Origin: Candidatus Omnitrophota bacterium
Lineage (GTDB): Bacteria > Ratteibacteria > UBA8468 > MWAK01
Direction: 5' to 3'
NCBI GenBank assembly: GCA_043797665.1
Contig: JAZDPL010000071.1
Location: 1 to 43,729, forward strand
DNA length: 43,729 nucleotides
Below, piece by piece: positions 10,214 to 43,729 of this stretch. Within the stretch, counting starts at the first letter, position 1, and every line of letters starts with the position of its first letter. Position numbers and translations under genes: made by a program. A model generated the notes under the pieces. The model did not search any database. It was not told where the DNA came from and worked only from the letters and a program-made list of their open reading frames with translations.

Positions 10214-10250
10214 GGGATTGCCCCGCTCCCTTTGGTCGCTCGCAATGACA
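10214..10250. repeat. Short palindromic repeat element (GGGATTGC...GCAATGACA type)
   Basis: ATTGC/GCAAT stem with a GACA end; same architecture as 37683-37712. Lies between convergent genes. Confidence 0.55.
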
Positions 10251-10286
10251 GGCACGGTGTTCATTGAGAATTTACTATATAACTTC

Positions 10287-13578: not shown

Positions 13579-13618
13579 CGCCACCTTAGCTCAGCGGTAG
13601 AGCAGGGCATTTGTAATG
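13579..13618 (+). repeat. att-like 40-bp duplicate of the tRNA-Thr 5' half
   Basis: Identical to 16056-16095; ends 2 nt past the anticodon loop. Confidence 0.95.
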
Positions 13619-16015: not shown

Positions 16016-16056
16016 TTAATGTGATGAAATTGCCACGGAGCTTCGAATAAGTTTTC

Positions 16057-16128
16057 GCCACCTTAGCTCAGCGGTAGAGCAGGGCATTTGTAATGCTCTG
16101 GTCGGGGGTTCAATTCCCTCAGGTGGCT
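16057..16128 (+). tRNA. tRNA-Thr(TGT), CCA not encoded
   Basis: Acceptor stem GCCACCT/AGGTGGC; D arm GCTC-AGCGGTA-GAGC; anticodon arm GGGCA-TTTGTAA-TGCTC; T loop GTTCAATTC. Confidence 0.97.
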
Positions 16129-26931: not shown

Positions 26932-29082
26932 ATGAGCCGACCAAAAAAAGGGAATTATGAACGTTATTATGACCGGACCCTGTTCCGGGTTTCCGAGAAC
27001 TATCTCCTGCCCGACCAGAAAGTCGGCGGAATTCCAAGGGAGGATTTTGAAAAAAAACTGGCTGAATGTGGTGTGGAATCCCGATGGATCGGAGTTTATG
27101 ACCACGGTGGACCGCGTTTCAGTTCTAACTTTATCCCTATATCCAAACGCGTTCCCGGCGATTTGACGTCTGAATTGAAGAGATGGGTGGATATTGTCCA
27201 CCAGGCGGGTATGAATGCGGTCACCTGGTGTGCTGTATCCCATTGCGAATCGGGTTGGGCGGAACATCCCGAATGGCGCCTTGTCTATATGGATGAGAAT
27301 CAAGACCTGAAACACTCCTGTTGTATCAACACCTCTTACGGCGAGGCGCTTATCGGCATGACATTGGAATTCTTTGAGAAATTTAATCTTGACGGCATCT
27401 GGTTTGACGGCGCCAATTTTACCGGATTTCCTCTTCGCTCCGGTTGCATCTGTCCTGATTGCCGGCAGAAATTTGAAACCGAAACAGGTTGCGTATCACC
27501 AAAGACAGTCAATTTTGGTAATAAAGTTTTCCGGGTGTGGGTGCAATGGCGTTTTGACATGTATTCGGCGTATCTGAAAAAGTTGGTTGATGCCATCCAT
27601 GCCCGTTATCCGGATAAAGTCATCGGAATAAACCATTATCACCGGTATGACCCCAATGCCTGGCTTACCGCCTGTCCGCTGGACCCCTTTGAATGCGATA
27701 TCGTTACCGGCAGTGAATCTACGGGCCGTACGGATTTAGCCTCTTTTTCCGCAAAATTGGCTTCGGCTTACGGCCGAAAACATTTTGACGTCTGGACGGC
27801 GACATTCCGATGGAAAGGGGGGAAAAACTGGCAGTTCCATGAACCTCTCGCTTTAATGCATCATGCCGCAGCCTGCCTCACCTTCGGCGGGTATCCTGTC
27901 TTTGGTTTTGAAACAGACATCCCGGCGGGAGCGATGTCTGCATACGCGGAGTCCTTTTTTAAACCGGCGGCAGATTTCTTACGCCGGCGGTCCCCGTATG
28001 TGGAGATTGAAAGCGCCAATCCGGTAGCTCTGCACATCTCCCAGCAAACCGAGACCTTCTTTTTTGGGCGCAACCCGGACAGCCCCGGTTTCGGCTGGTA
28101 CTGGGAGAGTGTGCTGGGTTGGGACCAAATGCTGAATGAAACGGGCTTAGGCTCAGATTTCATATTTGATAAACACCTGAACGCAGAACGCCTGAAACGT
28201 TATAACGTGGTTATTCTGCCTCTGTCCTTAGGGCTTTCGGAAGAACAGGGGAAAATCCTTAAGGAGTATGTCAGGAATGGCGGGGTGCTGGTACTGGGAC
28301 CCTGGGCCGGCAGATTGGATGTAGCAGGGGAACCGGTTGTTGGTGGAGGTGTTCTGGAGGAATTACGTTCCGTGGACGAAGGAATCGTCCCGGCCGCGGA
28401 TAAATTCGCCAGGAATACAGTATATCTCAAAAATCAGGCCGTGAATATTTCAGGACTGCATGGTTTTGGAGTATTCACTATGGCCGCGGAACAGACAGCG
28501 AAAAACGGGGCTGAAACGGTAATGTTTCAAGAAGAAACGGCCGTCGCAAAGGGTGACCTGTCCTTTCTTTACGATCGGGACTTGCCAAAAAAAGCGGCGG
28601 AACGCGTCCTGTCTGCCGTGACAAGGCGGCGGTTTGGAAAGGGACATGTCATTGACCTGGCAGCTGACTGGGGCGCCTCTTTCTACTATGCCCCAAGTTC
28701 ACCCATGCGTAAAACGCTGATCTCCACTCTGGAAGATCTGACCGTTTTTCCGATAGCCGTGAAAGCTCCGGCCTGCGTTTCAACGGCGTTCCGAAAAGAA
28801 AAGGGCGGCGGTTTGCTGATACACCTGCATAACTGCCCGGTCACCATACACCAGAGTGGAAATAGTCATATACCTACGCCCGAGGTGTGTTATGCCAACA
28901 TAATACCAAGGGATATAATACCCATATGCGACGTAAACATTGAGGTTCGGGGACTAAAAATCAAAAAAGCAAACCGGTTGGTGGAAAAACCTGAATCTCT
29001 ATCCGTGGAAAAAAATGGGGGTGTCTTGATAATCAGGCTGGGCCGGCTTGATTTGCACGAAATCGTCAATCTTTCTTTTTGA
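26932..29082 (+). CDS. Cytoplasmic glycoside hydrolase-like protein (TIM barrel + beta-galactosidase trimerisation-like domain)
   Basis: No signal peptide; HPEW, DGIWFDG, CICPDC and L..YNVVILP....LS......L.EYV.NGG.LV. Confidence 0.7.
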   Translation: MSRPKKGNYERYYDRTLFRVSENYLLPDQKVGGIPREDFEKKLAECGVESRWIGVYDHGGPRFSSNFIPISKRVPGDLTSELKRWVDIVHQAGMNAVTWCAVSHCESGWAEHPEWRLVYMDENQDLKHSCCINTSYGEALIGMTLEFFEKFNLDGIWFDGANFTGFPLRSGCICPDCRQKFETETGCVSPKTVNFGNKVFRVWVQWRFDMYSAYLKKLVDAIHARYPDKVIGINHYHRYDPNAWLTACPLDPFECDIVTGSESTGRTDLASFSAKLASAYGRKHFDVWTATFRWKGGKNWQFHEPLALMHHAAACLTFGGYPVFGFETDIPAGAMSAYAESFFKPAADFLRRRSPYVEIESANPVALHISQQTETFFFGRNPDSPGFGWYWESVLGWDQMLNETGLGSDFIFDKHLNAERLKRYNVVILPLSLGLSEEQGKILKEYVRNGGVLVLGPWAGRLDVAGEPVVGGGVLEELRSVDEGIVPAADKFARNTVYLKNQAVNISGLHGFGVFTMAAEQTAKNGAETVMFQEETAVAKGDLSFLYDRDLPKKAAERVLSAVTRRRFGKGHVIDLAADWGASFYYAPSSPMRKTLISTLEDLTVFPIAVKAPACVSTAFRKEKGGGLLIHLHNCPVTIHQSGNSHIPTPEVCYANIIPRDIIPICDVNIEVRGLKIKKANRLVEKPESLSVEKNGGVLIIRLGRLDLHEIVNLSF

Positions 29083-29101
29083 ATGCTGCCCATATACCTT
29101 C

Positions 29102-31579
29102 ATGAAAACGTACAAATGCTGTTTAATGAGATTGGCTGGTTTATGGTTGTTTATTCTGCCGTTGCGCCTCATGACGGCTGACGTTCCGCTGGTGCTGGTG
29201 CGGGACGGCAACCCGACAGTCAGCATCGTGGTGGCGAAGGAACCGTCGCGGTCAGCGGCCTTCGGGGCGATTGAACTCCAGTATCACATCCAGAAGATTA
29301 CCGGGACAGACCTGCCGATTGTGACCGACGATGTGCCGGTTTCGGGTCCGGTAGTCCTGGTGGGGGAAAGTACCTTGACCCGCCAGCGCGGGTTGAAGAG
29401 CGCTGATTTCAAACCCCAGGAGTACCTGATTCGGTTTGAGCCCAACGTCTTAATCCTGATGGGACGGGATAAGCCGGATGGAATCGCCAATTGGCGGGAC
29501 CCGGCTGTTTCGCGGGGCAACGCACCAAGTTACCAGGACTATGAGGATAACGGCTCAAACTACGCGGTCTTTGACTTCCTGGAGCGGTACTGCGGGGTGC
29601 GGTGGTATGCACCCACGGAATTAGGCATGGTCTATCCGACTACCAAGACCCTGGAAGTCCGCGGCAAGGACGTCCGACGCTCCCCGGCCTTTGAGTTCCG
29701 GCTTACGCCTATGGGCTTGTACTATTACACCTCCAGTACTATGACCGCAAACCTCTGGAACCATGCGACGGCTAACGACATCGGTTTGTGGGTTCGCCGC
29801 CTGCGGCTGGGCGGGAAAATGTATGCCGGCAACCATTCGTTCTACGGCTATTACGACCGGTTTTGGAAAAAGAATCCTCAGAACCCGGGAGTATTTGAAG
29901 AAGAACATTCTGAATATTTCGCGCAAGGTTACGACGGCAAGCCGCCGCAGTTGTGTTATACCAACCCGGCGTTAATCAAGCAGGTAGTACAGGATGCCCG
30001 CGATTACTTTGACGGGAAGGGAGCGAAGTATTGGGCGTGCGTGGGCGAGAATTATTTTTGTTTGGAACCGATGGACAGCAGCGATTACTGTAAATGCGAT
30101 ACCTGCCAGGCGTTCCTGAACAAAGACGAAGTGAATAACCAGCAGTTCAGCAACGGCAAATGCAGTAATTACATCTTTACCTTTGTCAATAAGGTGGCCA
30201 GGGAACTTAAAAAGACCCATCCGGACAAGTATGTCTCCGTTCTGGCCTATGCGAATAAAGCGCATTATCCAACCAATGTGCGGCTGGAGCCCAACGTCAT
30301 GGTGCAGATGTGCCTGCATACGCGCAACTGGTGGTGTCCGGCGATGGAGCGGTCAGATATGGCAGTTTACAAGCCGTGGGTGAAAAAGGAGAAGGGCCGC
30401 CCGTTGGCGCTCTGGCTTTACTATTTATTCCCGGAGTTTATTGCCAACGGGCAGGGTTTTCATTGTTTCCCCGGGTTTTTTGCGCATACTCAGGCGCGTC
30501 AATTCAAGATGTTTCACAAGGACGGCATTCTCGGTACGTATTCCGACGCCTGGGCGACGGGTGAACAGATAGATGCATACGTGATGTTCAAAATGCTGGA
30601 TGACCCGGACCAGGATGTTGACCAACTGCTGCATGAATTCTTCACCCGGTACTACGGGCCGGCAGCCGGCAAATACTTAGAGCAGTTCTACCGGAGGGTG
30701 GAGGAGATTTACACAAACCCCGCCAACTACCCGGAGGAAGTACAAAAAGAGGACAAGACCTTCCATCAAACCGAGGAGATTGCCTGGGGGTATCTGGGGA
30801 CAGCGGAGCGGATGGCGGAACTGGGGAAATTAGTGGAGCAGGCAGGGGCTGCGGTACAAACCGATGCGGAAAAGCAGCGCTTTGCGCTCTTTGAGCAGGG
30901 TATCTGGAAGTATATGAGCGAAGGCCGCAAGAAATATGTCGCCAAACTGCCGTTCAAGGCCGAAGTGGAGGCCTTGAAAAAATCCCTGCCGCCTTCCGGA
31001 CGGATACCGAAAGCGGACGGAACGATTGCCAACGGCGACTGCACCAGAGTTGATTGGTCTAAGGCCGCGGTCATTAAAATTTACCGTTCGGTACAGGGCT
31101 ATCCGACCGACCGCACCGTCCGCGCCCTGATGGTGCATGACGGCCGGTTCCTTTACCTGCACCTGGAAGATGCGACGGATGCAACAAAGTTGGTTGATGG
31201 CGGCGTATTCTCTGGTGACCACTGGGAGTTATTTTTCGCGGCGCAGCGCGGTAAGGAGACGTTCTTAGCGGCGCGAGAAAACCCCTACCGTCAAATAGGT
31301 ATCTCGGCAAGCGAAAAATTCGAGGCATACCTGTGGGGCGAGTCGGGCGGGTGGAACAGCGGTGTAAAGATTACGTCCACCAAGACACCCGAATCCTGGA
31401 TTATGAACCTTGCTTTCCCCCTGGATAAACTGACGGCCAGGGGAGTTAAATCCGAGGGTAAGTTATATTTCAATCTTATCCGCGGGTCCAGCCAGGGCGC
31501 AGACCCGTTGGCCTGGAGTCCGACTTTTTCCGACAATTTCCACGCACCGGAGAGATTTGGCGAACTGACCCTTGAGTAA
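29102..31579 (+). CDS. Secreted DUF4838-family protein with a C-terminal CBM9-like domain
   Basis: Signal peptide; A.ELQYH..KITG; AVFDFLERYCGVRWY; P.FEFR; HSF; QLCYTNP; MD...YCKC..C; LAY; C-terminal D.WELFF and W.MNLAFP. Start could be 29126. Confidence 0.78.
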   Translation: MKTYKCCLMRLAGLWLFILPLRLMTADVPLVLVRDGNPTVSIVVAKEPSRSAAFGAIELQYHIQKITGTDLPIVTDDVPVSGPVVLVGESTLTRQRGLKSADFKPQEYLIRFEPNVLILMGRDKPDGIANWRDPAVSRGNAPSYQDYEDNGSNYAVFDFLERYCGVRWYAPTELGMVYPTTKTLEVRGKDVRRSPAFEFRLTPMGLYYYTSSTMTANLWNHATANDIGLWVRRLRLGGKMYAGNHSFYGYYDRFWKKNPQNPGVFEEEHSEYFAQGYDGKPPQLCYTNPALIKQVVQDARDYFDGKGAKYWACVGENYFCLEPMDSSDYCKCDTCQAFLNKDEVNNQQFSNGKCSNYIFTFVNKVARELKKTHPDKYVSVLAYANKAHYPTNVRLEPNVMVQMCLHTRNWWCPAMERSDMAVYKPWVKKEKGRPLALWLYYLFPEFIANGQGFHCFPGFFAHTQARQFKMFHKDGILGTYSDAWATGEQIDAYVMFKMLDDPDQDVDQLLHEFFTRYYGPAAGKYLEQFYRRVEEIYTNPANYPEEVQKEDKTFHQTEEIAWGYLGTAERMAELGKLVEQAGAAVQTDAEKQRFALFEQGIWKYMSEGRKKYVAKLPFKAEVEALKKSLPPSGRIPKADGTIANGDCTRVDWSKAAVIKIYRSVQGYPTDRTVRALMVHDGRFLYLHLEDATDATKLVDGGVFSGDHWELFFAAQRGKETFLAARENPYRQIGISASEKFEAYLWGESGGWNSGVKITSTKTPESWIMNLAFPLDKLTARGVKSEGKLYFNLIRGSSQGADPLAWSPTFSDNFHAPERFGELTLE

Positions 31580-32006
31580 CATATTGCGGAAAAGCTGTAT
31601 GTCGTCAGCCCTTTTTGGACAAATTCGCCTGATTTAAGTTTGCAGTTTAGTATCGGTCCGGGTAGCCGTTTCCGTTAAATGTCTTCCTTCCAGATTGTAC
31701 TTCTTCCTGCGTTTCGGGGTCAACTTCCTAAACCAGAAACTAATTGCGACAGCACGTTGGGGTAAGGCCAGTAATTCAATGAATTTCAGGTTTATTAGGA
31801 ATTGTGTGGCTGATTTCTCCAGGTCCGGAAGACATACATACCATCTGTCCCTTGCGTTTGTCTTTAGGGATGTTTTCTTCAGGTAAAACGCAAACCCTTT
31901 ACCCATATTAGAAAGAGCCGGATTCTCCCTGTTGCGGTTCTTTTTGCCGAATTACAGACGTAGGGTATTTGGACTAGAGGGGAAAAACGTCAGGAAACAA
32001 AGATTT

Positions 32007-32035
32007 TTGACTCTGCTAATAATTTGTGGTATGCT
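32007..32035 (+). promoter_or_regulatory. Sigma70 promoter of the TA operon
   Basis: TTGACT-17 nt-TATGCT with an extended TG. Confidence 0.6.
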
Positions 32036-32096
32036 TTTGATAAGAATCTGGATTAACGTTTAATAAAATTTTGGTCAGAGTAAGGAGGAATGACCG

Positions 32097-32309
32097 ATGT
32101 CTACGCGACAAACATTAGAAAAAACCCCGGAATTAGTTGTCAGAGAAGGGAAGCCGGTGGCAGTGATCTTGGCTCTTGATGAATACCAAGAAATGTTGGA
32201 GAAATTAGAGGACATAGAAGACTTGAGGATGTTAAATGAGCTGAGAGCAAAACCTCTTAACTTCAAAAATCTTAATGATTTTCTGAGGGAATATAGTCCA
32301 AGTGTATAA
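32097..32309 (+). CDS. Type II antitoxin (Phd/YefM-like)
   Basis: AAGGAGG RBS; GKPVAVIL..DEY..MLE.LED.EDL; overlaps the toxin start. Confidence 0.82.
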   Translation: MSTRQTLEKTPELVVREGKPVAVILALDEYQEMLEKLEDIEDLRMLNELRAKPLNFKNLNDFLREYSPSV

Positions 32310-32556
32310 CATCTATCTTGAACGGACCGCGGAGAGAGACCTAAAACGGCTACAAAGTCAAGATTTTTGGCGAATCATTGAAAAGATTAAAGTCCTGAGT
32401 GATAACCCAAGACCTGCTAATTGTCGCAAGATATCTGGTTCCAAAAATGATTGGCGCATTAGAATTGGGGATTATCGAATAATCTACGAAATAGATGATT
32501 CTGCGTGTGCGGTTAAAGTATATCGGGTGAAACATAGAAAAGAAGCCTACCGATAA
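32302..32556 (+). CDS. relE: RelE/ParE-family toxin
   Basis: Y.I.....AERDL..L, L.DNPRP, WRIRIGDYRIIYEIDD and HRKEAY. Confidence 0.9.
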   Translation: MYNIYLERTAERDLKRLQSQDFWRIIEKIKVLSDNPRPANCRKISGSKNDWRIRIGDYRIIYEIDDSACAVKVYRVKHRKEAYR

Positions 32557-32579
32557 GTATTTTCTCCAATAGAACAAAT

Positions 32580-32601
32580 GTTCAATTCCCTCCGGTGGCT
32601 C
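32580..32601 (+). repeat. att-like duplicate of the tRNA-Thr 3' end
   Basis: GTTCAATTCCCTCCGGTGGCTC versus tRNA GTTCAATTCCCTCAGGTGGCTC (21/22 identical). Confidence 0.9.
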
Positions 32602-32612
32602 CGCTTCCCTAA

Positions 32613-32822
32613 TTACAGGTTCTTCAATTCCACCGGTTCCTCTTTAGGATTACAGACACCGCAGTAAAGCACGTTGTCCACCACCACTGCTTTATAGCTG
32701 TCACCAACCTTCGTATAAATATCCAGGATGTACGGCATAGCCTTGACGTGTTCTTTGCATAGACCACGGCCACAGAACTTACATACCCCGAAAGCAGGTC
32801 TCTCACAGTGCCAGCAATTCAT
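32613..32822 (-). CDS. Small Cys-rich zinc-finger-like protein (DUF2180-like)
   Basis: MNCWHC...A.GVCKFCGRGLCKEH...YCGVC; AGGAGG RBS within the end of the upstream gene. Confidence 0.8.
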   Translation of the reverse strand: MNCWHCERPAFGVCKFCGRGLCKEHVKAMPYILDIYTKVGDSYKAVVVDNVLYCGVCNPKEEPVELKNL

Positions 32823-32823
32823 T

Positions 32824-35800
32824 TTAGTACCCTCCTTTTTTCAATTCGTGGATTCGTCGGCTGGATACCCGCTCTATCTTTTTCGTAATAAAGGGATTGT
32901 TACCCAGCAGGCTTGAAAAGTTTTCCCGGGTAAGCGTTAAAAGGGTTACCGCCGTTTTACTCTTTACGGTTGCGGTTCTCGGCACGTCAAACACCAGTGC
33001 AATCTCACCGAAATATTCGCCGGCACTTAATTCGGACACCTTTTCCGTGGAACCATCCGGACGGCGGCGGATTACTTCCAGTATTCCTTCTTTAACGAGA
33101 TAAAATTTATCTGCCATTTCGCCTTCTTTTATGATAAGCGCATCATTCGGATGCTTCTCCACCCTGAATTTTGAAGACAGGCTGCTTATCTGGACCATTG
33201 AAAATTCCTGGAACAACGGGATGTCGGACATAAACTGCAAATCCTCCCAGCCTTCCCGCAAATTGCCGGTTGTTCTGAATTGAGACCCCAGGAATGATTC
33301 GAAAGCATTTCTGTCGAGGGAGAGCAGTTCCACCTCCGTCATGCCTCTTACCGTAGCGTTTCGCTGTACGTTTTTAAGCAGCGCTTCCTCGCCAAAATAG
33401 TCCCCTTTTTCTAAATAAGCAACGACACTGGCATTCCCGTCAAGGTTTTCGTAGATAACTTCTGCCCTGCCTTTCCATATCAGATAAAATTTATCTCCCT
33501 TTTGCCCCTGCTTGATGATTTCTTGGCCGGGGCGGCAGGTTTCAAATTTAACCAGGGAAGAGAGTTTGTCTGTGTCTTCCGCGGCGAGGTGCCGGAATAA
33601 CAGTGTCCGGGACAAAAATTCCCGGCGTTCCTGGGTGGAAATTTTTGCGGAAGACCCGGGTACCTGCAGCCATCCGAGTTTAGAAATTACATAATCCTCA
33701 AATACCTCGCGGTCTTCCCAGGGCAGGGTGTCGTGAATCTTTAAGAGCATCCTTTCGACCAGGTTCTTCCCGGTTACCTTCATTATGGAACTGACAAGAT
33801 ACGTTGTGCTTTGCTGGTAGAGAGTAACTATCTGGGACATAACAGAAGCATCGAATCCACGGTGTTCAACATTAGTCTCTGTAATAGAAATGGGCCAGTT
33901 TTCTTTGTCTGCTTTACAATTAAATCTTTTCTTTACCAGTTCTGCAGTTCTCCGGCCGTAAAAATCAGCCACATCGTGGAGAAGCGAAAGAGCCGAAAAA
34001 GAGAATGATTTCTGGAGCCGCTCCCGGTCGCTTGTTGCGTCCCACCAGCCCGGCTCGAACCCTGCCGGAAGAGACAGGCGTCCATATCGGTGAACCAGGT
34101 AGTAATTCAGGAAGGAACACAGTACGAGCAAAAACGAAAGGGTAAAGAGGGTATTTGCTGAAATTTGTTGTGACGGGTTTGTGGCTACAATCCATCCGCC
34201 TTTCAACAGGGATAGAAGTGCCAGGAAGAGCATCCACCAGTAAACGTTTAATTTACTGCCCCGATAAGTTTTCAGGTTTGGCAAAAGAAAGACTAAAAAA
34301 CCTGTGGCTGCAATCAACAGGGGCGGGAAGAGCGGCAAGGCATTGGTCAGCACGACGACCAGTAGCGGGAATACAAGAAATCTGCCGGCAATGTTTTTAT
34401 GGAAAATCCAGCCGGCTAACCATAAAGTTAAAATAACGGCGATTGTGGAAAGGGAAATAAGGTAGAGATTATCCCATCTTTTCGGGAATAATACGTGGAT
34501 GGAAATAAGAACCAGCGACCCTGCCAACAACAGGGGGGATACCTGTCGGGCGTTCCGCCACAAGGGCCGCCTGACAAGCCAGTTAACCAGTGACATTACG
34601 CCCAGTACGGCTATGACCACAAAGAAAATAGTCAGCGGTATCAGCAGGATGCTTAAAGCAAATAATGCCCCGATACGCGTACCGGCACTGACGCTGACAA
34701 CCAGGTCTTCAAGCATCAAATTCTGTTTTGTTTTAATGAGATAGAGAAAAATTTTCGTGGTGGCAACAATCCAGATTAGACCGGAGAATAAAAGGCTTAA
34801 ATACCCATTCTCGGCCGGGGACAACTTTTCCTCCCGCCAGAATTTTGCCCGGAGGTCTTTTTTGAAAGCCACGACGGTTCTTCTCCGCAGGTTTTCAACG
34901 TTGAACCAGTCTTTAAGCAGCCGGTAGCCATCCAAATCCAGCAGCGGCGAAAACTGGATAAAAATACGCAGATAGCAGACCAGTGTAAGCGTGAATATTA
35001 TCTGGTTCGTCAAATCAGCCGGACGGACTGCCAGGGAGATAATGCTGAGCAACCCCGCAAAACCAAATTGTATCAAAAACCCGGCCCAGGTCAGCCGCAT
35101 CCTTACCTGGTTGTCCATCAGACATCGGTCCCGTTTATCTAAGAAGACGTTGGGCAGACCCAGATAAAATCCGAGGCCGGACTTCCTGGGCTTTAGTTTT
35201 AATGCCTTAAAATAAGCGGCGTATGAACCTTCGTAAAGGAACGAACCCGCCAGATTGGCCAGGATTATCGTGATGAAACCGAGGGCATACGAATTTAGCA
35301 GTTTCAAGGGGGTGTAAAGACCCTGCGTACCGGTAAGAATAAAAAAGATGAAGCCGGCGATGCCCGCTAAGACCAGCCATAATTTCCCTGATTTGGTTGA
35401 AAAAATCCGTATATAGGGAGTAAATAACCAGGATAAGAGGTTATCTAAATGCCTGATTTCCACTTTTTTTACCGCGATGGTACGTCTCCAGCGGTTCAGT
35501 TTTGCAACGGACGAACGTTTGGCTATTTCCTCTTTGACCTGGGAAAAGATGCCCGCCGGTGTTGTTTTAAGAAAATAATTATTTCTGAGGTCGTTCAAGA
35601 AATGTGCCACCCTTTCCATTCCCAGGGAACCATATTTTTCCAGGTATTTGCTGAGGATAATGCTGACATTGTTGGAGCCATCGATAATGTTCCAGATGAA
35701 GAAGTTTTTTTCATCTATGGTGAGGTATGTTTCCTTCGGTTCATTTTTCAAAACCCAGGACTTCTTTCCTGCCCGGTCCGAAACGCGGTATTCTGAGACC

Positions 35801-35886
35801 CCTTCTGCTTTTACGAATACCGATTCAAGCAGGTCCATTTCTTTCTTCATCTGTTGCCATATCTCCGGCTTTTTGTCGTTTTTCAT
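32824..35886 (-). CDS. Polytopic membrane protein: PqqD-like winged helix, degenerate M50 peptidase-like domain, two cyclic-nucleotide-binding domains
   Basis: FIWNIIDGS..V..I (PqqD-like); YEGSY at the HExxH position and F.PLL.LDGY; many TM segments; two II.QG..GDKFYL...G.YFGE.AL....R.ATV repeats. The start overlaps the upstream stop (ATGA). Confidence 0.8.
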   Translation of the reverse strand: MKNDKKPEIWQQMKKEMDLLESVFVKAEGVSEYRVSDRAGKKSWVLKNEPKETYLTIDEKNFFIWNIIDGSNNVSIILSKYLEKYGSLGMERVAHFLNDLRNNYFLKTTPAGIFSQVKEEIAKRSSVAKLNRWRRTIAVKKVEIRHLDNLLSWLFTPYIRIFSTKSGKLWLVLAGIAGFIFFILTGTQGLYTPLKLLNSYALGFITIILANLAGSFLYEGSYAAYFKALKLKPRKSGLGFYLGLPNVFLDKRDRCLMDNQVRMRLTWAGFLIQFGFAGLLSIISLAVRPADLTNQIIFTLTLVCYLRIFIQFSPLLDLDGYRLLKDWFNVENLRRRTVVAFKKDLRAKFWREEKLSPAENGYLSLLFSGLIWIVATTKIFLYLIKTKQNLMLEDLVVSVSAGTRIGALFALSILLIPLTIFFVVIAVLGVMSLVNWLVRRPLWRNARQVSPLLLAGSLVLISIHVLFPKRWDNLYLISLSTIAVILTLWLAGWIFHKNIAGRFLVFPLLVVVLTNALPLFPPLLIAATGFLVFLLPNLKTYRGSKLNVYWWMLFLALLSLLKGGWIVATNPSQQISANTLFTLSFLLVLCSFLNYYLVHRYGRLSLPAGFEPGWWDATSDRERLQKSFSFSALSLLHDVADFYGRRTAELVKKRFNCKADKENWPISITETNVEHRGFDASVMSQIVTLYQQSTTYLVSSIMKVTGKNLVERMLLKIHDTLPWEDREVFEDYVISKLGWLQVPGSSAKISTQERREFLSRTLLFRHLAAEDTDKLSSLVKFETCRPGQEIIKQGQKGDKFYLIWKGRAEVIYENLDGNASVVAYLEKGDYFGEEALLKNVQRNATVRGMTEVELLSLDRNAFESFLGSQFRTTGNLREGWEDLQFMSDIPLFQEFSMVQISSLSSKFRVEKHPNDALIIKEGEMADKFYLVKEGILEVIRRRPDGSTEKVSELSAGEYFGEIALVFDVPRTATVKSKTAVTLLTLTRENFSSLLGNNPFITKKIERVSSRRIHELKKGGY

Positions 35887-36335
35887 AACCCTGTTTCGCA
35901 AATAGACATTTTATTTTCAAGAAGCCCCAGTCCTCTCTTCATATTATCGCCATCCCGGATAAGATACAAATCATCTTGTGTTTCCGACTGTTTGTCCGGG
36001 CCAAAACTTCTGATTTCGTAACCATTTTCACTTCGGTGGTAACATAAGTCATTGTCCCAGAAATCCTTGCCTACCTTTCTGAGTCCACCTTTGGAAGTAA
36101 AATTTCCCTCCATAAATTGTTTAAACTCCTCGTCGGCCGGATATGCTTTGGACGAACCGGCATCCACCGCCTCCATGATTTCATGTCGCTGCAAGGCCTG
36201 GTCTATTTCCACCAGTTCATTGCCGGTAATGGTATATTTAACCGAATTTATCAGGTTCAAAATGGTTTCCTTACCAGTTTTACCCAGACTGGTTATACTA
36301 CCGATAACCAACAATGTGGCAATCAATTTAAACAT
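35883..36335 (-). CDS. GspG/T2SSG-like pseudopilin C-terminal domain protein
   Basis: DFWDN.L.Y......YEIRSFGPD....T.DDL matches the DPWG...S.GPDG..GT.DDI signature; N-terminal hydrophobic segment without a G|FTLxE site. Confidence 0.65.
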   Translation of the reverse strand: MFKLIATLLVIGSITSLGKTGKETILNLINSVKYTITGNELVEIDQALQRHEIMEAVDAGSSKAYPADEEFKQFMEGNFTSKGGLRKVGKDFWDNDLCYHRSENGYEIRSFGPDKQSETQDDLYLIRDGDNMKRGLGLLENKMSICETGL

Positions 36336-36464
36336 AGGGAATTTTTCCGTCTCAGCCGGAGATATTATATCTTATAAAGTATGAGATTTTCAATACCTTT
36401 TTATGGTAAAATTAAGTGGTAAGTCTGTGTAAAATAATCTTGTGACCAATCAACATAGCTACAA

Positions 36465-37349
36465 ATGAATGAAGAAGCGTTCCGCGAGATAGAGGATTTA
36501 GGAATCCTGAAGCGCTTTCAGGCAGACCTTAAACTTTTGACCGGCCTGGGGTTTGACTTCATCGATACCCAGGCAAAACACTCCCTGCCCTTAAACGCCA
36601 TTAAGAAATATACCCCTTTTTGCAGTCTTGTCCACACCAAACCTTTAGGCAGAACCGCCTGTGAGGAATCTACCCTGAAAGCAGTGGCGCAATGTCTGAA
36701 GACAAAACAGCCGGTAATGTCCAACTGCCATTTAGGCCTGGTAGACGTGTACATCCCCCTGATTATCCACAACACCGTGACCGGGGTTCTGACTACCGGA
36801 CAGTTCCTTTTTTCAAAACCAGATGCCCCCGGTTTTAACCGCATAAAAAAGAGGATGGCTGGCTTTGGTTTAAACCTGAGCAGGGCGAAAGCCGATTATC
36901 TCTCCATCCCGGTCATCAAAAAGGAACGCGTAAAGGCAATCGTTGACCTCATCAATGTGGTCATAGAGTACATCCGGGAAGCGGAACACAAAATTCTGGT
37001 GGCGGGAGACGTTACCCGGAAAGATAAACTAAGACAGGCACGGGAATTTATTGAATCTAAGTACACGCAGGACATTTCTCTGGCTGACGCGGCTTCCGCA
37101 GTCAACCTTAGCCCCTCCCGATTATCGCATCTTATGAAAGAGAGGTTAAATACTAATTTTACTGCTTACCTCAACGACCTGCGGGTTCACTGGGCAAAGT
37201 TCTTTCTGACTAACACCAACCTCAAAATCATTGAGGTCGCCTCCCGGGTCGGGTTCGGAAACCTCAGCCATTTCAATCACCTCTTCAAAGAAAAGGTCGG
37301 TCTCTCACCCCTCCGGTTCCGAAAACAGCAGAATAGTACAAGAATTTAG
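36465..37349 (+). CDS. AraC-family regulator with a PocR-like sensory domain
   Basis: FC.LV....G...C, CHLGL....P.......G....GQ; C-terminal double HTH ...EVA..VGF.N.SHF...FK...G.SP..FR. Confidence 0.9.
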   Translation: MNEEAFREIEDLGILKRFQADLKLLTGLGFDFIDTQAKHSLPLNAIKKYTPFCSLVHTKPLGRTACEESTLKAVAQCLKTKQPVMSNCHLGLVDVYIPLIIHNTVTGVLTTGQFLFSKPDAPGFNRIKKRMAGFGLNLSRAKADYLSIPVIKKERVKAIVDLINVVIEYIREAEHKILVAGDVTRKDKLRQAREFIESKYTQDISLADAASAVNLSPSRLSHLMKERLNTNFTAYLNDLRVHWAKFFLTNTNLKIIEVASRVGFGNLSHFNHLFKEKVGLSPLRFRKQQNSTRI

Positions 37350-37411
37350 CCTGCCAGCAGTAGACACACCTGCTACTTTTATTCTAAACTAATACAAACA
37401 CATTATTGAAA

Positions 37412-37470
37412 TGTAGGGGCGACATTTATGACGCCCGTACCCTGCGGGTTTGATAAATCAAACCCCTACA
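37412..37470. repeat. GTAG-type REP doublet in inverted orientation
   Basis: GTAGGGGCG..ATTTAT..CGCCC / GGGTTTGATAAATCAAACCCCTAC; related to 43658-43707. Confidence 0.75.
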
Positions 37471-37490
37471 AAACTTGCTCAGAGGAATAA

Positions 37491-37537
37491 TTATGGAAAC
37501 GTTGGGGTATGAGTGGCCGGGCGCCTATTTTGTCGGT
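37491..37537 (+). repeat. 47-bp direct repeat, left copy (orphan 5' end of the DegT gene with its RBS)
   Basis: 46/47 identical to 42346-42392. Preceded by AGAGGA. Reads METLGYEWPGAYFVG and then stops at 37573. Confidence 0.97.
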
Positions 37538-37675
37538 AGGGCGTATCAAGTTAGTAGTGCATCCCTATCGTAAACAACAGAACTGTACTGAAACGTAAGG
37601 CAAGCCCTGAAATTTATTCAGGACAGCATTGAAAAACGTAGTGTGACCCTTTCAGGGTCGCCAGAGGAGGTTCAG

Positions 37676-38401
37676 ATGATACGAGATTCTTCACCTTTGG
37701 CTCAGAATGACAGAGGGCATGCCTTCACACTTATCGAACTTTTGGTCGTTATTGCGATTATCGCCCTTCTGGCGGCGATGTTACTGCCAGCACTGTCTCA
37801 AGCCAGGGAGAAAGCAAAACAGGCACAGTGCATGAATAATTTGAAACAGTTGGGATTAGGTTATTTTATGTATACGCAGGACTACGATGATAACATCCCT
37901 GCTTTGACATATAATTTAAATTACTATGAAAGTTGGCTGGATGGCGAATATGCTTATACGGGAGCTCGTCTATTAAAAAATTTAGGTTATATTGGTAACT
38001 ATAAAATTGGCTGGTGTCCCAGTGCTAAAGGTTGGTATTCCTTATCTAAAAGTTCGCAACTCGCTGGTTATTTTATGCGTCTGTTCTATTTTGACGGAGT
38101 TTACTCTTGGAATAATCAGAGTAATTCTTGGCACTGCATGAAACTGGGTAGGATACGTAACCCGTCGGGAACAATGTTACTGGCGGATCCGGTCTGGGAC
38201 AACTTCCTTGGTGCCTTTCCTCATGGCAATAACAACTTCAATGTCCTCTTCTGTGATGGGAGTGTACGTCATGTTGTAGACAACGGGCTTACAGTATACA
38301 ACTATGTCTCAATTGAACCCGCATGGAATTGGGAAAGTCCTTGTCGTACCACAGGTAGATATGTAGAAATGGCTGCCGGAAACTCTCAGCCGGAGTTTTA
38401 G
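37676..38401 (+). CDS. Prepilin-type cleavage/methylation + H-X9-DG-like protein (DUF1559-like)
   Basis: GAGGAGG RBS at 37664-37670; [52 protein letters not shown]. Confidence 0.92.
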
Positions 38402-38436
38402 GCATTTCGGGAAACTAAAGGAAGAAAAAAGGGAAT

Positions 38437-40869
38437 ATGGGTAAGAGAATAATGAAGCGGATGGTTGAAATGTTGTTTTGTAGTTTAGGGACAATATTTG
38501 TTCTTATGGCTTTGCCACTGCGGGCAGGAGAACTCCTCCTGGCGGAAAAGGGAACCACTAAGTATGCCATCGTACTTTCTAACCAAGCCAGTAAATCGGA
38601 AAAGACTGCCGCGGAAGAACTGGCCGGGTACCTTCAGGAAATAACCGGAGCTACCTTCCAGATAATTACTGAGGATAAAGAAGTACCTGGCCCGCGTATC
38701 ATTGTTGGTCCGGGTACGCTCGGTAATTCCATTCTGGGCAAGGAAGCCGTTGGCCAGATGGCTGAGGAGGAATTCATTATCCGAACCGCAGGTTCTGACC
38801 TCCTGCTGGTTGGAGGCCGGCCCCGAGGGACGCTTTATGCGGTCTATTCGTTTCTGGAGAACGACCTGGGTTACCGGTGGCTGAACTGGTACGGTAACGA
38901 AGTGATACCCAAAAAAGAAACCCTTCGGGTAAATAGGATTGACCGCAAAGAAAAACCCGCCTTTAGATCAAGGGACGTCTACTTCCGTAACTATACCGAT
39001 ATGGAACAGATGAAAAGATTTCTCATCTGTAATCGTATTCAAGGACCTAACCTCCGGTGGCTTCACGGAGATGAATATATTTCCCGGTACGGAGGAATTT
39101 ACTACCGAGAAATAGCACCCGGGTGTCACACTCTCTTCTATTACATCCCTCCAGGCGAAGCCCCCACAAGATGTTCTTTTGCGTACTTTCAGTCAAGAGA
39201 CCAAAATAATTACTTCAAGACCAACCCGGAGTATTTTTCTTTGATCGACGGTCGGCGGGTACCCTGCCAGCAGTTGTGTTTCAGCAATCCTGGACTGCGA
39301 CGTACCCTTACGGCGGAGGTCGAAAAATATATAAAATTCGTCGAGGGAGAAGGTGACCTGTCTATTTCGGCGGTCGGGGGAAAAAATCTCCTGTCTATTT
39401 CGGCGATGGATTCTCCTGGTGACTTATGCCAATGTCCTGAATGTCAGGAACTTGTGAAACGCGAGGGAACACCTGGTGCGCCGTTATTTGACTATCTGGT
39501 AGAATTGGCAAATTACATCCGGGATAAGTATCCGGGGGTCTTTATCACCACCCTTGCCTACCGCCGGGGCCAAACAGAAAAACCGCCCCTCCATCTTAAG
39601 ATGCCGGAGAATGTAGTCATTGTCTTTGCTCCTATCGACAATAACTTTTCAGCTCCTTTTGAGGACCAGTCAAACGAAGAAACCTTTGAGAATATCAAGT
39701 CCTGGACTTCAGTAACCAAACATCTCCTGGTCTGGTACTATCCAAACCCTTACGGTGATATGCTTCCCATAGGGAACCTTGAAAATGCCGCAAAAGATTT
39801 TCGGTTTTTCCGAAAAATCGGTGTGGAAGGATTCATGCTGGAACATGATTCCGGTATCTATGAGTCGCATCACCTTGCGGATTTGCAGACGTGGCTATTA
39901 GCCAAATTGATGTGGAACCCGGACCAGAATTTTAATACACTCACAGAAGATTTCACCAATAATTTCTATGGTAAGGCCGCTCCATTTATCCGGAAGTATC
40001 TCTACGCACTGGAAAAAGCGACTCAAGGAATGACCACCACCATGTCCTGGATTCCGGCAGCCAGGGCATATTGTTTTCTGACGCCAGAGTTACTGATTGC
40101 CTCCCAAAAGATATTTGACCAGGCGGAAGAAGTGGTTCTCAATGATCCGGTTCTCTTGTTACGCGTCAGGCAGGCCAGAATGAGTCTGGACCGCGCCTCG
40201 TTCCACTTCCGGAGAGATATTTCGGCCATTCCGGACTCAGGATTAGAACGGGAAGAAATAGCCCGGCGTTACCGCGACACCTATCAGAAGACGATTGAAA
40301 AAAGGATTAGACCGGAATTTAGGCAAGAATTTTCCAGATATGTGGAAGATTTTTTCAATCCGCGGTTGAGGATAACGTCGACACTCAAACTTAAACCCTT
40401 GCCTGTCCCACTCAATGAAATTCCCGAAGAGAAGGTTCAACAGGTGGTTCCGGATTCCTCACAACTCTATCGTGATGCAACAATCGAAAAGGACCCGGAC
40501 TCGGCTTCCGGAATAGCCATAACCAAAGAAACCGGAGGAGAACTCCCCTTCAACTTAGGTTATTATGACGGAACCACCAAACGACAATTGCCTCGCAACA
40601 TAACGAAGGATGAAATATGTTCCAGCGGCTACAATCTTTATAAAATTGGCCGAACAACCTTGAACGAACAGTGTCTGGTCTGGATAAGCAGTTCCTGGTG
40701 GATAGGGTTTCCTGCTATATCTGCTTGTTACGATAGTGATGACCCTGAAAAAGAATGGGACATTTACGCCTCTCTCCGGTTTGAAGGACCAACCTATCCG
40801 CACGGTCCAAAGAGTACGGTCGACCGGGTCTTTGTGGACCGGGTGGTGCTGGTTCCAGTCGAGGAATGA
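38437..40869 (+). CDS. Secreted DUF4838-family protein
   Basis: Signal peptide; AAEELAGYLQEITGA; RGTLYAVYSFLE..LGYRW; HT; PEYF; QLCFSNP; MD....CQC..C; LAY; KLMWNP. Paralogous to 29102-31579. Confidence 0.82.
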   Translation: MGKRIMKRMVEMLFCSLGTIFVLMALPLRAGELLLAEKGTTKYAIVLSNQASKSEKTAAEELAGYLQEITGATFQIITEDKEVPGPRIIVGPGTLGNSILGKEAVGQMAEEEFIIRTAGSDLLLVGGRPRGTLYAVYSFLENDLGYRWLNWYGNEVIPKKETLRVNRIDRKEKPAFRSRDVYFRNYTDMEQMKRFLICNRIQGPNLRWLHGDEYISRYGGIYYREIAPGCHTLFYYIPPGEAPTRCSFAYFQSRDQNNYFKTNPEYFSLIDGRRVPCQQLCFSNPGLRRTLTAEVEKYIKFVEGEGDLSISAVGGKNLLSISAMDSPGDLCQCPECQELVKREGTPGAPLFDYLVELANYIRDKYPGVFITTLAYRRGQTEKPPLHLKMPENVVIVFAPIDNNFSAPFEDQSNEETFENIKSWTSVTKHLLVWYYPNPYGDMLPIGNLENAAKDFRFFRKIGVEGFMLEHDSGIYESHHLADLQTWLLAKLMWNPDQNFNTLTEDFTNNFYGKAAPFIRKYLYALEKATQGMTTTMSWIPAARAYCFLTPELLIASQKIFDQAEEVVLNDPVLLLRVRQARMSLDRASFHFRRDISAIPDSGLEREEIARRYRDTYQKTIEKRIRPEFRQEFSRYVEDFFNPRLRITSTLKLKPLPVPLNEIPEEKVQQVVPDSSQLYRDATIEKDPDSASGIAITKETGGELPFNLGYYDGTTKRQLPRNITKDEICSSGYNLYKIGRTTLNEQCLVWISSSWWIGFPAISACYDSDDPEKEWDIYASLRFEGPTYPHGPKSTVDRVFVDRVVLVPVEE

Positions 40870-40969
40870 AAAAACAGATAAGTAAGGGATAATCCAAAAG
40901 AACCAGTTTGTTATCTTTTCGACCTTAAAGCCTGAAAATCCGTGTCCCTATTATTAAAGAGGTAATTCT

Positions 40970-42256
40970 ATGACTGACCGATTCGGCGATGGACGCGACT
41001 GGTTTTTTGAGGAGCGTTTTGGTTTGTTCGTGCATTGGGGGTTGTACGCCATTCCCGCCTGGCATGAACAAATTCAGTATAGAAAGAGAATTCCGCGAAA
41101 GGAGTATGAAAAGCTGATCTATGAGTTTAACCCGACCCGTTTCGTCCCAGACACGTGGTTGGATCTGGCGGAGGAGGCGGGCATGAAATACGTCTGTTTC
41201 ACCACAAAACACATTGATGGTTTCTGTTTATGGGATACAGCGCAGACAGATTACAATGTAATGCATTCTCCCTACGGGAAGGATGTTCTTGGAATACTTG
41301 CCGATGCTTGTCACCGCAGGAATTTCCCCCTCTGTCTGTACTATTCGGTTGTAGACATGCACCACCCGAATTATCCTAATCAGAACCGGAGCTATGAGTT
41401 GGCCGGGCCAGAGATAGGTGATGAGCCGGATTTGGATAGGTACATGATTTTCGTGAAGGAGCAGGTCCGGGAGCTCTGCACCCAGTACGGGGAGATCCAC
41501 GGTTTCTGGTGGGATGCAAACGTAATGAAACACAGGGACCCATCGATCAACAGTTTGATTCGTTCTCTGCAGCCAAAAGCGGTCATTAACGGACGAGGTT
41601 TTGATGACGGCGATTTTTGCACGCCTGAGCGGGATTGGGATGATTCTGTAAATAAACTTCCGGCTTTTAAGCGTCCCACCGAGGCCTGTCAATCAGTGGG
41701 CACGGAGAGCTGGGGGTATAAGGAGGATGAAAATTACTACAGTGATATTCATCTCATTCGAAATATTGACAAGATCCTGGCCAAAGGAGGTAATTACCTC
41801 CTGAACGTCGGTCCCACAGCGGACGGCAGTATCCCGCCTGAGGCGGTGCGGATCCTGAGAACCATCGGGAAATGGTATCATGCTGTCCAAGAGGCCTTTG
41901 ATCAGAGTGAACCTGTCTCTCACATGACCGAAAACCCAGATGTACTACTGACAAGAAAAAATAATATTTTTTATGTTCATCTGTTCAAGTGCCCGGCCAG
42001 TACGAAAGTAATGCTCAAGCCCATAGATGTGATGCCCCGGCAGGCAAAACTACTTAACACAGGCGCGGAGGTAGAAGTCCGCGTGGATCTTCTTCCCAGC
42101 TTACATCCGGAGAATAAAAAATATTTGTACATCCGCAACCTGCCGGTCAATGAACTTGTGAACACGGTGATGGTTGTGAAGTTGAAGTTTGATAAATTTC
42201 CCGAATCGGGTTTCGAAGACCAAGGTGATTCACCATTCATGCGGCTCCAGTCATGA
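40970..42256 (+). CDS. Alpha-L-fucosidase (GH29), no signal peptide
   Basis: WF...RFGLFVHWGLY, FNP..F, AGMKY...TTKH.DGF.LW, EL.TQYG...GFWWD (nucleophile), SWGY and GGNYLLNVGP. Confidence 0.93.
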   Translation: MTDRFGDGRDWFFEERFGLFVHWGLYAIPAWHEQIQYRKRIPRKEYEKLIYEFNPTRFVPDTWLDLAEEAGMKYVCFTTKHIDGFCLWDTAQTDYNVMHSPYGKDVLGILADACHRRNFPLCLYYSVVDMHHPNYPNQNRSYELAGPEIGDEPDLDRYMIFVKEQVRELCTQYGEIHGFWWDANVMKHRDPSINSLIRSLQPKAVINGRGFDDGDFCTPERDWDDSVNKLPAFKRPTEACQSVGTESWGYKEDENYYSDIHLIRNIDKILAKGGNYLLNVGPTADGSIPPEAVRILRTIGKWYHAVQEAFDQSEPVSHMTENPDVLLTRKNNIFYVHLFKCPASTKVMLKPIDVMPRQAKLLNTGAEVEVRVDLLPSLHPENKKYLYIRNLPVNELVNTVMVVKLKFDKFPESGFEDQGDSPFMRLQS

Positions 42257-42345
42257 GGTTATTTTACCCGACATTAATCCTGCAAATGTAGCAGTTCTTT
42301 TTGATGCAGTAAGAAGTTAGTACGGAGTATTATAACGCACATCCC

Positions 42346-42392
42346 TTATGAAAACGTTGGGGTATGAGTGGCCGGGCGCCTATTTTGTCGGT
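42346..42392 (+). repeat. 47-bp direct repeat, right copy (start of the intact DegT ORF)
   Basis: Matches 37491-37537 with a single A/G difference (42351 versus 37496). Confidence 0.97.
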
Positions 42393-43595
42393 GCAGAAGA
42401 ACTGGAACTGGTAACAAAAGTGGTGCGGGCAAAGTCGCCTTTCCGGTACTACGGCCTGGACTGCCAGCACATGACCGACCGATTGGAAAAGGAGTTTGCC
42501 GGGTATACCGGAAGCCGGTATGCCTTAGCGGTAAGCAGCGGAACCTCAGCGCTGAACGTGGCTTTGGCTGCCCTGGGTGTCGGACCGGGCCAGGAAGTGA
42601 TTGTGCCCGGCTATATGTGGGTCAGCACCGTGGCTGCGGTGGTGAACCGGGGTGCCATTCCGGTTCTGGCTGAAATTGACGATTCTTTCTGCCTGGACCC
42701 GAAGGACTTGAAACGGAAAATTACTCCCCGGACCACGGTGGTGATCCCGGTCCATATGAGCGGTGCTCCCGGAAATATCTTGGAGGTCTGCGCCATCAGC
42801 CGCAGATATAATCTGAAGATTGTAGAAGACTGCGCCCAGGCTTGCGGCGCATCCTACCATAAGAAAAAAATCGGGACTTTCGGTGACATCGGCTGCTTCA
42901 GTTTCCAGTACAACAAGGCGATGACCACCGGCGAAGGAGGCATGGTAATCACCAATGATGAGCTCTTTTATAAACGGTCCCTGGCTGCCCATGACATTGG
43001 CCACAGCAGAAATTTAGCGGGTCGCCTGGTCGTTGACCCTAAGGTTCTCCTCTGGGGATTAGGAACCAGGATGAGCGAACTCCAGGCAGCTTTTGGCCTG
43101 GCGCAACTGCGAAAACTGAATAAGATAACCGATGCGATGCGAACAGCCAAGTACAAAATCCGCACTGCCGTCTCTAACCTTCCGGGTATCACCCTGCGCC
43201 GAATGGATGACCCAAAAGGCGATAACGGCTCCTTTCTCATTACCAGCTACCCTACCCCGGAAAAGGCAAAACGGATGTCAGAAAGATTAAAGATACTGGG
43301 CGTCCAGGCTGGTCCGGACAGCCTTCTTCTCTGCTATTTTGAACAATGGGGTTTCCATCTTTACTACAATATGCCGGCTCTGGTAAAAAAAGCCAGTACC
43401 TCTCCGGACGGATTCCCCTGGACCCATCCCTTGAACAAAAACAGCGTTTATGAGTATGATAAAGGAAGTCTGCCCCGGACCGATGACCTCTTCAGCCGGA
43501 GCGTCATTCAGGCGATTCCGTCTAACAGCCGTGCTAAAAACGCAGCAATGATTATAAAGGCATACCGGACCGCCGCCAAAGAGATATTAAAGTAA
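42348..43595 (+). CDS. DegT/DnrJ/EryC1/StrS family PLP-dependent aminotransferase
   Basis: SSGTSAL, G.EVIVP, PVHMSG, VEDCAQA.G, FSFQYNK.MTTGEGG and RMSELQAA.G. Confidence 0.95.
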   Translation: MKTLGYEWPGAYFVGAEELELVTKVVRAKSPFRYYGLDCQHMTDRLEKEFAGYTGSRYALAVSSGTSALNVALAALGVGPGQEVIVPGYMWVSTVAAVVNRGAIPVLAEIDDSFCLDPKDLKRKITPRTTVVIPVHMSGAPGNILEVCAISRRYNLKIVEDCAQACGASYHKKKIGTFGDIGCFSFQYNKAMTTGEGGMVITNDELFYKRSLAAHDIGHSRNLAGRLVVDPKVLLWGLGTRMSELQAAFGLAQLRKLNKITDAMRTAKYKIRTAVSNLPGITLRRMDDPKGDNGSFLITSYPTPEKAKRMSERLKILGVQAGPDSLLLCYFEQWGFHLYYNMPALVKKASTSPDGFPWTHPLNKNSVYEYDKGSLPRTDDLFSRSVIQAIPSNSRAKNAAMIIKAYRTAAKEILK

Positions 43596-43599
43596 ATTA

Positions 43600-43619
43600 C
43601 CCCGTGCTTCCGCACGGGG
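43600..43619. terminator. GC-rich hairpin after the DegT stop (possible terminator; no U-tract)
   Basis: CCCCGTGC-TTCC-GCACGGGG. Confidence 0.45.
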
Positions 43620-43657
43620 CATTGGGACATTAAAAATGTTTGTATTCAACATTCAAG

Positions 43658-43707
43658 GTAGGGGCTTGATTTATCAAGCCCGCGGGTCGGATAAATCCGA
43701 CCCCTAC
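43658..43707. repeat. GTAG-type REP doublet in inverted orientation
   Basis: GTAGGGGCTTGATTTATCAAGCCC-GC-GGGTCGGATAAATCCGACCCCTAC. Confidence 0.8.
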
Positions 43708-43729
43708 AATTTTGATTGCAAAACAACTC

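Follow-up and report, generated by a model that had tools for sequence, protein, structure and literature searches.

The window, i.e., the whole stretch of 43,729 bp that was analysed, is an entire contig (C78) of a Candidatus Omnitrophota assembly (2.69 Mb, 93 contigs, 86% complete). Towards one end of it, a gene for a PocR-domain AraC-family regulator and an intact gene of the DegT family (degT) are separated by genes for a prepilin-type protein, a DUF4838 protein, and a GH29 family protein, and by a remnant of a URO-D-family gene (Table 1). This insert is bracketed by two direct repeats of 47 nucleotides that start 4855 bp from each other, leave 4808 bp in between, and are identical at 46 of the 47 positions. 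Each copy consists of two leading bases and 45 nucleotides that open with an ATG (offset 2), thus doubling the first 15 codons of a gene. The lone mismatch (G/A at position 6) sits near the outer end of the repeat, leaving 41 perfect bases. The left copy reads METLGYEWPGAYFVG, continues with 11 unrelated residues, and then reaches a stop codon (26 codons in all), and the right copy forms the start of the intact DegT-family ORF of 415 amino acids. In the whole 2.69-Mb assembly, the 47-mer occurs twice; as about 3e-14 chance pairs are expected for such a repeat, a chance origin is ruled out. The duplication of the first 15 codons around 4808 bp, noticed in a preliminary description of this DNA, was borne out by the coordinates and the 46/47 identity. 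The same description held that removal of the insert together with one repeat copy would restore an intact gene behind the regulator. Indeed, it follows from the sequence that such an excision places the ribosome-binding site (RBS) of the AraC side before degT, which stays in frame because both ATG codons share one offset.

Table 1. Features of the AraC-DegT locus in the window (strand: +, forward;., none assigned).
Feature	Position	Strand	Basis or remark
PocR-domain AraC-family regulator, upstream flank	36465..37349	+	Pfam PF10114 + PF12833
Sigma-70-like promoter match, weak (9/12)	37361..37390	+	
REP-like double hairpin of a family abundant genome-wide, outside the repeat	37413..37469	.	
Shine-Dalgarno-like sequence before the stub ATG	37481..37486	+	Duplex energy -5.9 kcal/mol
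Left copy of the repeat, a stub with the first 15 codons of DegT (ATG 37493, stub ORF stop 37573)	37491..37537	+	
Prepilin-type N-methyl/DUF1559 protein, 241 aa, H-X10-DG near the C-terminus	37676..38401	+	Pfam PF07963, PF07596
DUF4838/GH67-N protein, mosaic relative to the C30 paralogue	38437..40869	+	
GH29 alpha-L-fucosidase family protein, last codons entering the URO-D remnant	40970..42256	+	PF01120
URO-D-family gene with two deletions, joining residues 236-243 to 322-end	42225..42320	+	Score reached by 0/5000 shuffles
Right copy of the repeat, opening the intact DegT gene, without upstream Shine-Dalgarno sequence	42346..42392	+	Duplex energy +1.9 kcal/mol
Intact DegT/DnrJ/EryC1/StrS aminotransferase, 415 aa	42348..43595	+	PF01041

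The stub has kept a Shine-Dalgarno-like sequence, whereas the intact degT gene lacks one, a weak test, given that similarly poor scores are found for 38% of 1063 long ORFs called by a crude procedure. Sigma-70-like matches numbered 14 in the region versus 8.6 in shuffled sequences, which provides no evidence of function, and a crude scan of the plus strand from 41977 to 42348 gave no promoter-like match. A duplication from one REP element to another was considered and rejected, since the hairpins are not part of the repeat and the RBS region that precedes the left copy is missing in front of the right one. The degT gene has a GC content of 53%, compared with 46.6% for the insert, and the 28 closest relatives of its product are 55-76% identical to it. 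A DegT homologue is directly preceded by a URO-D gene at one other locus (L008) and by a pilin-like gene at another (L011), indicating that degT fits such operons; judging from this gene order, the right junction looks inherited and resembles a natural operon joint.

The first gene of the insert encodes a protein (the 241-aa form being the version in the protein collection) that scores above the cut-off of TIGR02532. Its earlier designation as a pilin with an H-X9-DG motif holds for the prepilin-type part and not for the motif, whose spacing is ten residues and whose TIGR04294 score (17.7 bits) falls below the cut-off of 19. A small multi-copy hairpin repeat (37681-37712) lies in frame within the leader of this gene. 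The genome under study (G000) contains 55 ORFs with a prepilin-type N-terminal motif, 39 of which carry H-X(8-10)-DG near the C-terminus, and three prepilin-type ORFs are present in the window (6805, 23518, and 37676). The DUF4838 gene is 49-65% identical to its paralogue on contig C30 over the first 1.2 kb and 79-89% identical over 39631-40830; the paralogue is followed by a different gene than in the insert. A 33-bp in-frame tandem duplication (39340-39405) occurs approximately where the DNA similarity to the C30 paralogue starts.

The insert does not end with the GH29 gene. The 96 bases that overlap its end were matched to the URO-D gene following the GH29 orthologue in two class relatives, G028 and G055. 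Four GH29 orthologues were found among 64 other genomes; in these two of the four, a 341-aa URO-D gene follows (PF01208 on the G028 protein). The composition of the remnant indicates that two deletions removed 235 codons from the start of the URO-D gene and 78 from its interior. Its 31 residues gave no Pfam match on their own, their identity coming from the comparison with the relatives. Hence, the insert, which had been regarded as exactly one complete module, ends in two fused pieces of a decayed gene lying over the GH29 end. At its two ends (37548-37575 and 42314-42352), the insert contains the same 9-mer and, close by, the same 7-mer, both in direct orientation. These may be traces of an older nested repeat, a candidate that was rejected, the 9-mer alone not being significant (299 of 5000 shuffles and 621 of 20000 random pieces). 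No further degT pieces were retrieved from the insert or the 6.5 kb upstream (best E 0.5 with blastn and 0.89 with tblastn).

The insert does not contain a regulator of its own. Similarly, a Pfam scan of its three ORFs revealed no integrase, resolvase, or transposase, in agreement with the initial reading, and none of the six PF00589 and two PF00239 matches of the genome lies inside it. The nearest recombinase match is truncated and located 21 kb away, at a tRNA-Thr gene. At that site, the 5' half of tRNA-Thr(TGT) is duplicated, a perfect copy of 40 bp being found 2.5 kb upstream of the intact tRNA (13579-13618 / 16056-16095), with a weakly PIN-like gene of 214 amino acids and scraps that are presumably Rhs-like in between; the truncated tyrosine integrase gene comes shortly after the tRNA and is not enclosed by the 40-bp repeat.

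All five proteins of the locus form single-member clusters, and the pilin-DUF4838-GH29 module was not found outside this locus in the genomes and protein clusters searched. Positions 28000-43729 of the window, compared as DNA with five family genomes, gave matches to repeats and short gene stretches only, and a search of viral contigs with 32 bases of the repeat gave no match. The target degT is an accessory gene, retrieved from none of eight other family genomes at E <= 1e-100. No match to the AraC regulator was found beside DegT relatives (six metagenome-contig loci, three genome-contig loci, 2/40 relatives); in 65 class genomes, the search yielded only a paralogue on contig C61 and its counterpart in G005, both of which lead a different operon. 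No empty AraC-DegT allele was found, close orthologues of either gene being absent from the genomes searched.

The arrangement at degT is not unique within the genome. A self-comparison, from which multi-copy repeats and paralogous gene pairs were taken out first, revealed 13 direct, no inverted (same contig), and 45 cross-contig pairs of isolated repeats at 25 bp and 90% identity, and 32 direct, no inverted, and 119 cross-contig pairs at 22 bp and 85% identity; part of this direct-strand bias may come from co-oriented paralogues. Setting aside two of the 32 with a spacing above 25 kb left 30 repeats for analysis. Half of these close direct repeats (15/30) contact a gene end, i.e., lie at most 45 bases from either end of an ORF encoding at least 190 amino acids, versus 6.2 +/- 2.2 by random placement (maximum 13 in 300 draws). 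The spare copy is on the gene-sparing side in 12 of the 15, and the geometry is opposite in three. The 12 gene-repairing sites, degT included, concern 12 unrelated genes, the symbols of which are interpretations of Pfam matches. Six are affected at their start (degT, xerD, an M24 peptidase gene, a URO-D-like gene, and two unnamed genes) and six at their stop (glmS, metG, holB, ychF, and the genes for a GntR regulator and a PLP decarboxylase). Other cassettes bracketed by duplicated gene starts, for which a search had been suggested, exist in the genome, together with further ones at gene stops. The duplications at the 12 sites span 29-223 bp and the inserts 0.36-18.9 kb. The cargo comprises pilin-like modules at five sites (the one at the C33 site being judged by sequence only), toxin-antitoxin-type genes at three, and other genes at four. 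The 12 sites have no junction motif in common (mean score 15.7 versus 16.0 in random DNA). Furthermore, a scan of 63 ORFs at the 11 sister sites, which left out the C33 AraC-end repeat and intergenic repeats, gave no integrase or transposase except the xerD target itself.

Ten of the 12 repairing sites show a single gene end only. The xerD site keeps both ends of a second gene copy (a 125-bp start and a 59-bp end, with cargo in between), the second copy of the GntR gene on contig C46 consists of a 151-bp start fused to an 87-bp end via a 9-bp overlap, and contig C45 contains two separate remnants of one gene. The complete xerD locus (L018; G000:C79:46341-59066) is composed of a start stub, 10.8 kb of pilin/GH29 cargo, an end stub, a DUF4160/DUF2442 pair, and the intact xerD gene, the latter seeming to be about 20 codons longer than its family members through an in-frame insertion. 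On contig C46 (G000:C46:6594-7776 / 26558-26786), a second copy of the GntR/LacI-type regulator gene is found 19-20 kb downstream, with promoter and start fused to the end, and stands ahead of a second pilin-like module.

Comparison with relatives uncovered alleles without cargo at three sister sites, namely glmS, metG, and xerD. None was found for AraC-DegT. In G001, a genome of the same genus, the end of glmS directly joins the stretch located behind the stub in G000. The glmS stub has kept its native downstream flank and agrees with G001 at the single differing base, indicating that the stub is the displaced resident end and that the intact gene took the incoming end. The 13-kb glmS cargo is also absent from G003, G006, and G008, and the glmS end is doubled in one of the 25 genomes with a glmS-end match (65 searched). 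Similarly, metG adjoins the post-cargo gene in six of seven relatives examined. The gene upstream of xerD is its immediate neighbour in five relatives. In G001, two small genes lie between them, and in G000 the distance is 15.6 kb; the upstream gene was not visible in G002. For both metG and xerD, the few differing bases favour neither copy clearly. In G001, holB has a different neighbour gene. The same filter applied to 755 kb (about 40%) of the genome of G006, which represents a second genus, gave 13 direct and three inverted pairs, among them stubs of what we take to be the starts of cmk and osmC; as far as sequence can tell, G006 has the same scar type at different genes. A 102-bp copy, 99% identical, of a gene 3' end is also present in G006, 4 kb upstream of the intact gene (L102; G006:C11:6117-6218 / 10229-10330), with scraps in between that are labelled transposase-like from their sequence.

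Short two-copy direct repeats some kilobases apart around acquired genes form a known class, attributed to Campbell-like integration of taken-up DNA. The present locus is similar in its close two-copy direct repeats around genes, competence of this lineage being putative. A class named 'insertion with long, variable target duplication' was described by Furuta et al. in 2010 (PMC2853133); that paper gives cases of 45-47 bp and notes that the repeats often lie over a start or stop codon, so that the gene stays intact, and mostly occur in competent species. Its criteria are an insert below 20 kb, a unique duplication above 30 bp, the absence of other mobile genes, and an empty allele. The degT locus has a duplication of 47 bp present in two copies only, and not as a multi-copy repeat, around an insert of 4808 bp devoid of integrase and transposase genes; as in that class, the length varies between events (29-223 bp over the 12 sites). 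Empty alleles are available for glmS, metG, and xerD, and none was found for AraC-DegT. Its authors link the class to restriction enzymes (PMC2853133). The published cases were chosen for restriction-modification cargo, whereas glycan-use, pilin-like, and toxin-antitoxin genes are found here, and no R or M genes are present in the insert (pilin-like, DUF4838, GH29, URO-D remnant). The locus is filed under the rearrangement type, not under the restriction-modification subset.

A mechanism for duplications of this kind has been studied in Escherichia coli, in which DNA with one-sided homology gave duplications of 109-950 bp through trimming, circularisation, and a single crossover (PMC3240628). 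Such events were rare, at about 6e-9 per recipient; 56 of 60 clones were PCR-positive and 14 were sequenced. Homology-facilitated illegitimate recombination (HFIR) in its classical form deletes resident DNA and leaves no duplications. In addition, recombination with one anchor was invoked for displaced gene-remnant arrays in type VI secretion system (T6SS) loci of Vibrio (PMC5361080). Single-crossover integration and HFIR share with the present sites one homology anchor, variable duplication lengths, and the lack of a dedicated recombinase; the experimental duplications differ in being very rare and 109-950 bp long, versus 47 bp here.

Taken together, the scar at degT is real and of an already described recombination kind, and is probably not a new targeted mobile cassette. 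The evidence supports an insertion-type scar whose duplication repairs the gene; further cassettes of this kind are present in the genome, and three sister sites have empty alleles in relatives. The insertion, with its long, variable target duplication, probably took place through homology-anchored uptake of DNA from a relative, without a dedicated recombinase. Indeed, many unrelated targets, variable lengths, and the absence of a common motif, of reuse, and of a recombinase indicate general recombination with DNA of a near relative. The donor would be a close relative that has the same degT gene behind other upstream genes (pilin, DUF4838, GH29, and the URO-D remnant), degT serving as the sole homology anchor for entry into the chromosome. 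In a first possible route, trimming would leave 47 bp of degT on the fragment, which would then circularise and integrate through a single crossover. Alternatively, in a variant of HFIR, a homologous crossover within degT may be combined with an illegitimate joint 47 bp into the resident gene. In either case, the stub would consist of the promoter, RBS, and 15 opening codons of the resident gene; the cargo and then an intact degT with the start of the donor would follow. Repeats would be found at gene ends because the homology of differently arranged alleles begins there and only products with an intact gene survive. No empty AraC-DegT allele being at hand, we infer from the sister sites that the locus was once empty and that an insertion occurred at degT; donor side and entry route are inferences too. 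The genome contains comEC and dprA matches, but as these occur in 10 and 11 of 14 control genomes, they are no sign of competence. Several points speak against homology-anchored uptake. No empty AraC-DegT allele was found, and with 47 bp the duplication falls below the 109-950 bp range obtained in E. coli, where the events were moreover rare (PMC3240628). Classical HFIR yields deletions, the geometry is reversed at three of the 15 repeats that touch a gene end, and the restriction enzymes to which Furuta et al. tie the class are absent from this cargo.

The main rival, possible yet decidedly less probable, is that a longer duplication comprising most or all of degT, originating from a larger homologous circle or a tandem duplication, was later cut to 47 bp by deletions in the redundant copy, in which case this length would record erosion and not the insertion step. 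Whole-gene duplication followed by decay, named in the preliminary description as a route that would speak against a mobile cassette, was encountered at two sister sites, xerD and the GntR gene on C46, which retain both ends of the second gene copy. The two separate remnants on C45 point in the same direction, and the two deletions in the URO-D gene of the insert indicate that deletion is active here. Other pieces of degT, however, were found neither in the insert nor in the 6.5 kb upstream, one gene end only is left at ten of the 12 repairing sites, and the copies at degT differ at a single position out of 47, so that little time has elapsed or the decay took place in one step.

Elements of the SXT/R391 type integrate at prfC and repair the 5' end of this gene. 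The islands specific for dusA possess their own integrase and excisionase; in different taxa, they reuse a single conserved site, with a repeat fixed at 21 bp, and provide their target gene with a new promoter (PMC8409611). The degT locus resembles both in having a stub upstream, an intact gene downstream, and an imperfect repeat that spans a protein gene's start. Accordingly, a non-autonomous cassette with an attP-like identity block could have been integrated at the start of degT by a site-specific recombinase encoded elsewhere or since lost, which is how the preliminary description had read the locus; we consider this unlikely. In its favour are the geometry, which equals that of 5'-end-repairing elements such as the dusA islands (PMC8409611), the outer position of the mismatch, whose 41 perfect bases look like an identity block, the presence of six tyrosine and two serine recombinase matches (and two Y1 transposase matches) in the genome, and a pilin-like gene at five of the 12 repairing sites. 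In contrast with dusA and prfC elements, neither an integrase or excisionase nor a supplied promoter was found at degT, and no second filled degT site was found at which reuse would show; no cognate integrase is present in or beside the insert. The repaired gene does not receive an RBS either, although this holds for 38% of crudely called long ORFs too. A discrete element that targets gene starts and is moved in trans is not supported, given 12 different, unrelated targets at both starts and stops, duplications ranging from 29 to 223 bp, and no junction motif in common. Likewise, the view of the pilin-hydrolase module as a discrete mobile unit finds no support, the cargo at sister sites often not being a pilin module and the module itself, a mosaic with decayed parts, not being found elsewhere. 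The doubling of the glmS end in one of 25 genomes and the accessory nature of degT (0/8 other family genomes at E <= 1e-100) also argue against this view. An insertion sequence or non-autonomous transposon was rejected, given the 47-bp duplication and a best end-to-end inverted match that is reached by 25% of random pairs, leaving no terminal inverted repeat. The same applies to an XerC/D dif-module, as the insert ends match 13 and 9 of the 22 positions of the arm motifs and the spacers differ.

A more far-reaching reading, which we regard as improbable, is that the modules exit as circles via their gene-end repeats and re-enter the empty alleles of neighbours by 30-200 bp of homology, without any integrase and maybe with the help of a short-homology recombinase; this traffic would cover the approximately 55 pilin-like glycan modules as well as toxin-antitoxin pairs. 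Finally, an assembly artefact joining two strain alleles via the 47-bp match, conceivable for a metagenome assembly of 93 contigs, is very unlikely, as contigs overlap by 141 bases, so that the final word length was three times the repeat and 47 bases should not trouble the assembler, the C78 contig ends in a multi-copy hairpin and not in the repeat, the two copies differ and have unrelated flanks, and the sister scars match independent assemblies of relatives.

A limited search found no literature on such cargo or site density in this group. The scar itself has been described before and is mechanistically unsolved, and the cargo type and the density of about 4.5 such sites per Mb are a small addition. 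Its modest value resides in a scar with metabolic cargo in an uncultured phylum, present at a dozen sites in one genome and with empty alleles for three of them, which supports general recombination over the restriction-enzyme explanation of 2010. In addition, intact and eroded states occur side by side in one genome. If circles and re-entry were true, the 47-bp repeat would be a working, reversible attachment site instead of a dead scar, and pilin-like glycan modules would have a route to spread without mobile-element genes.
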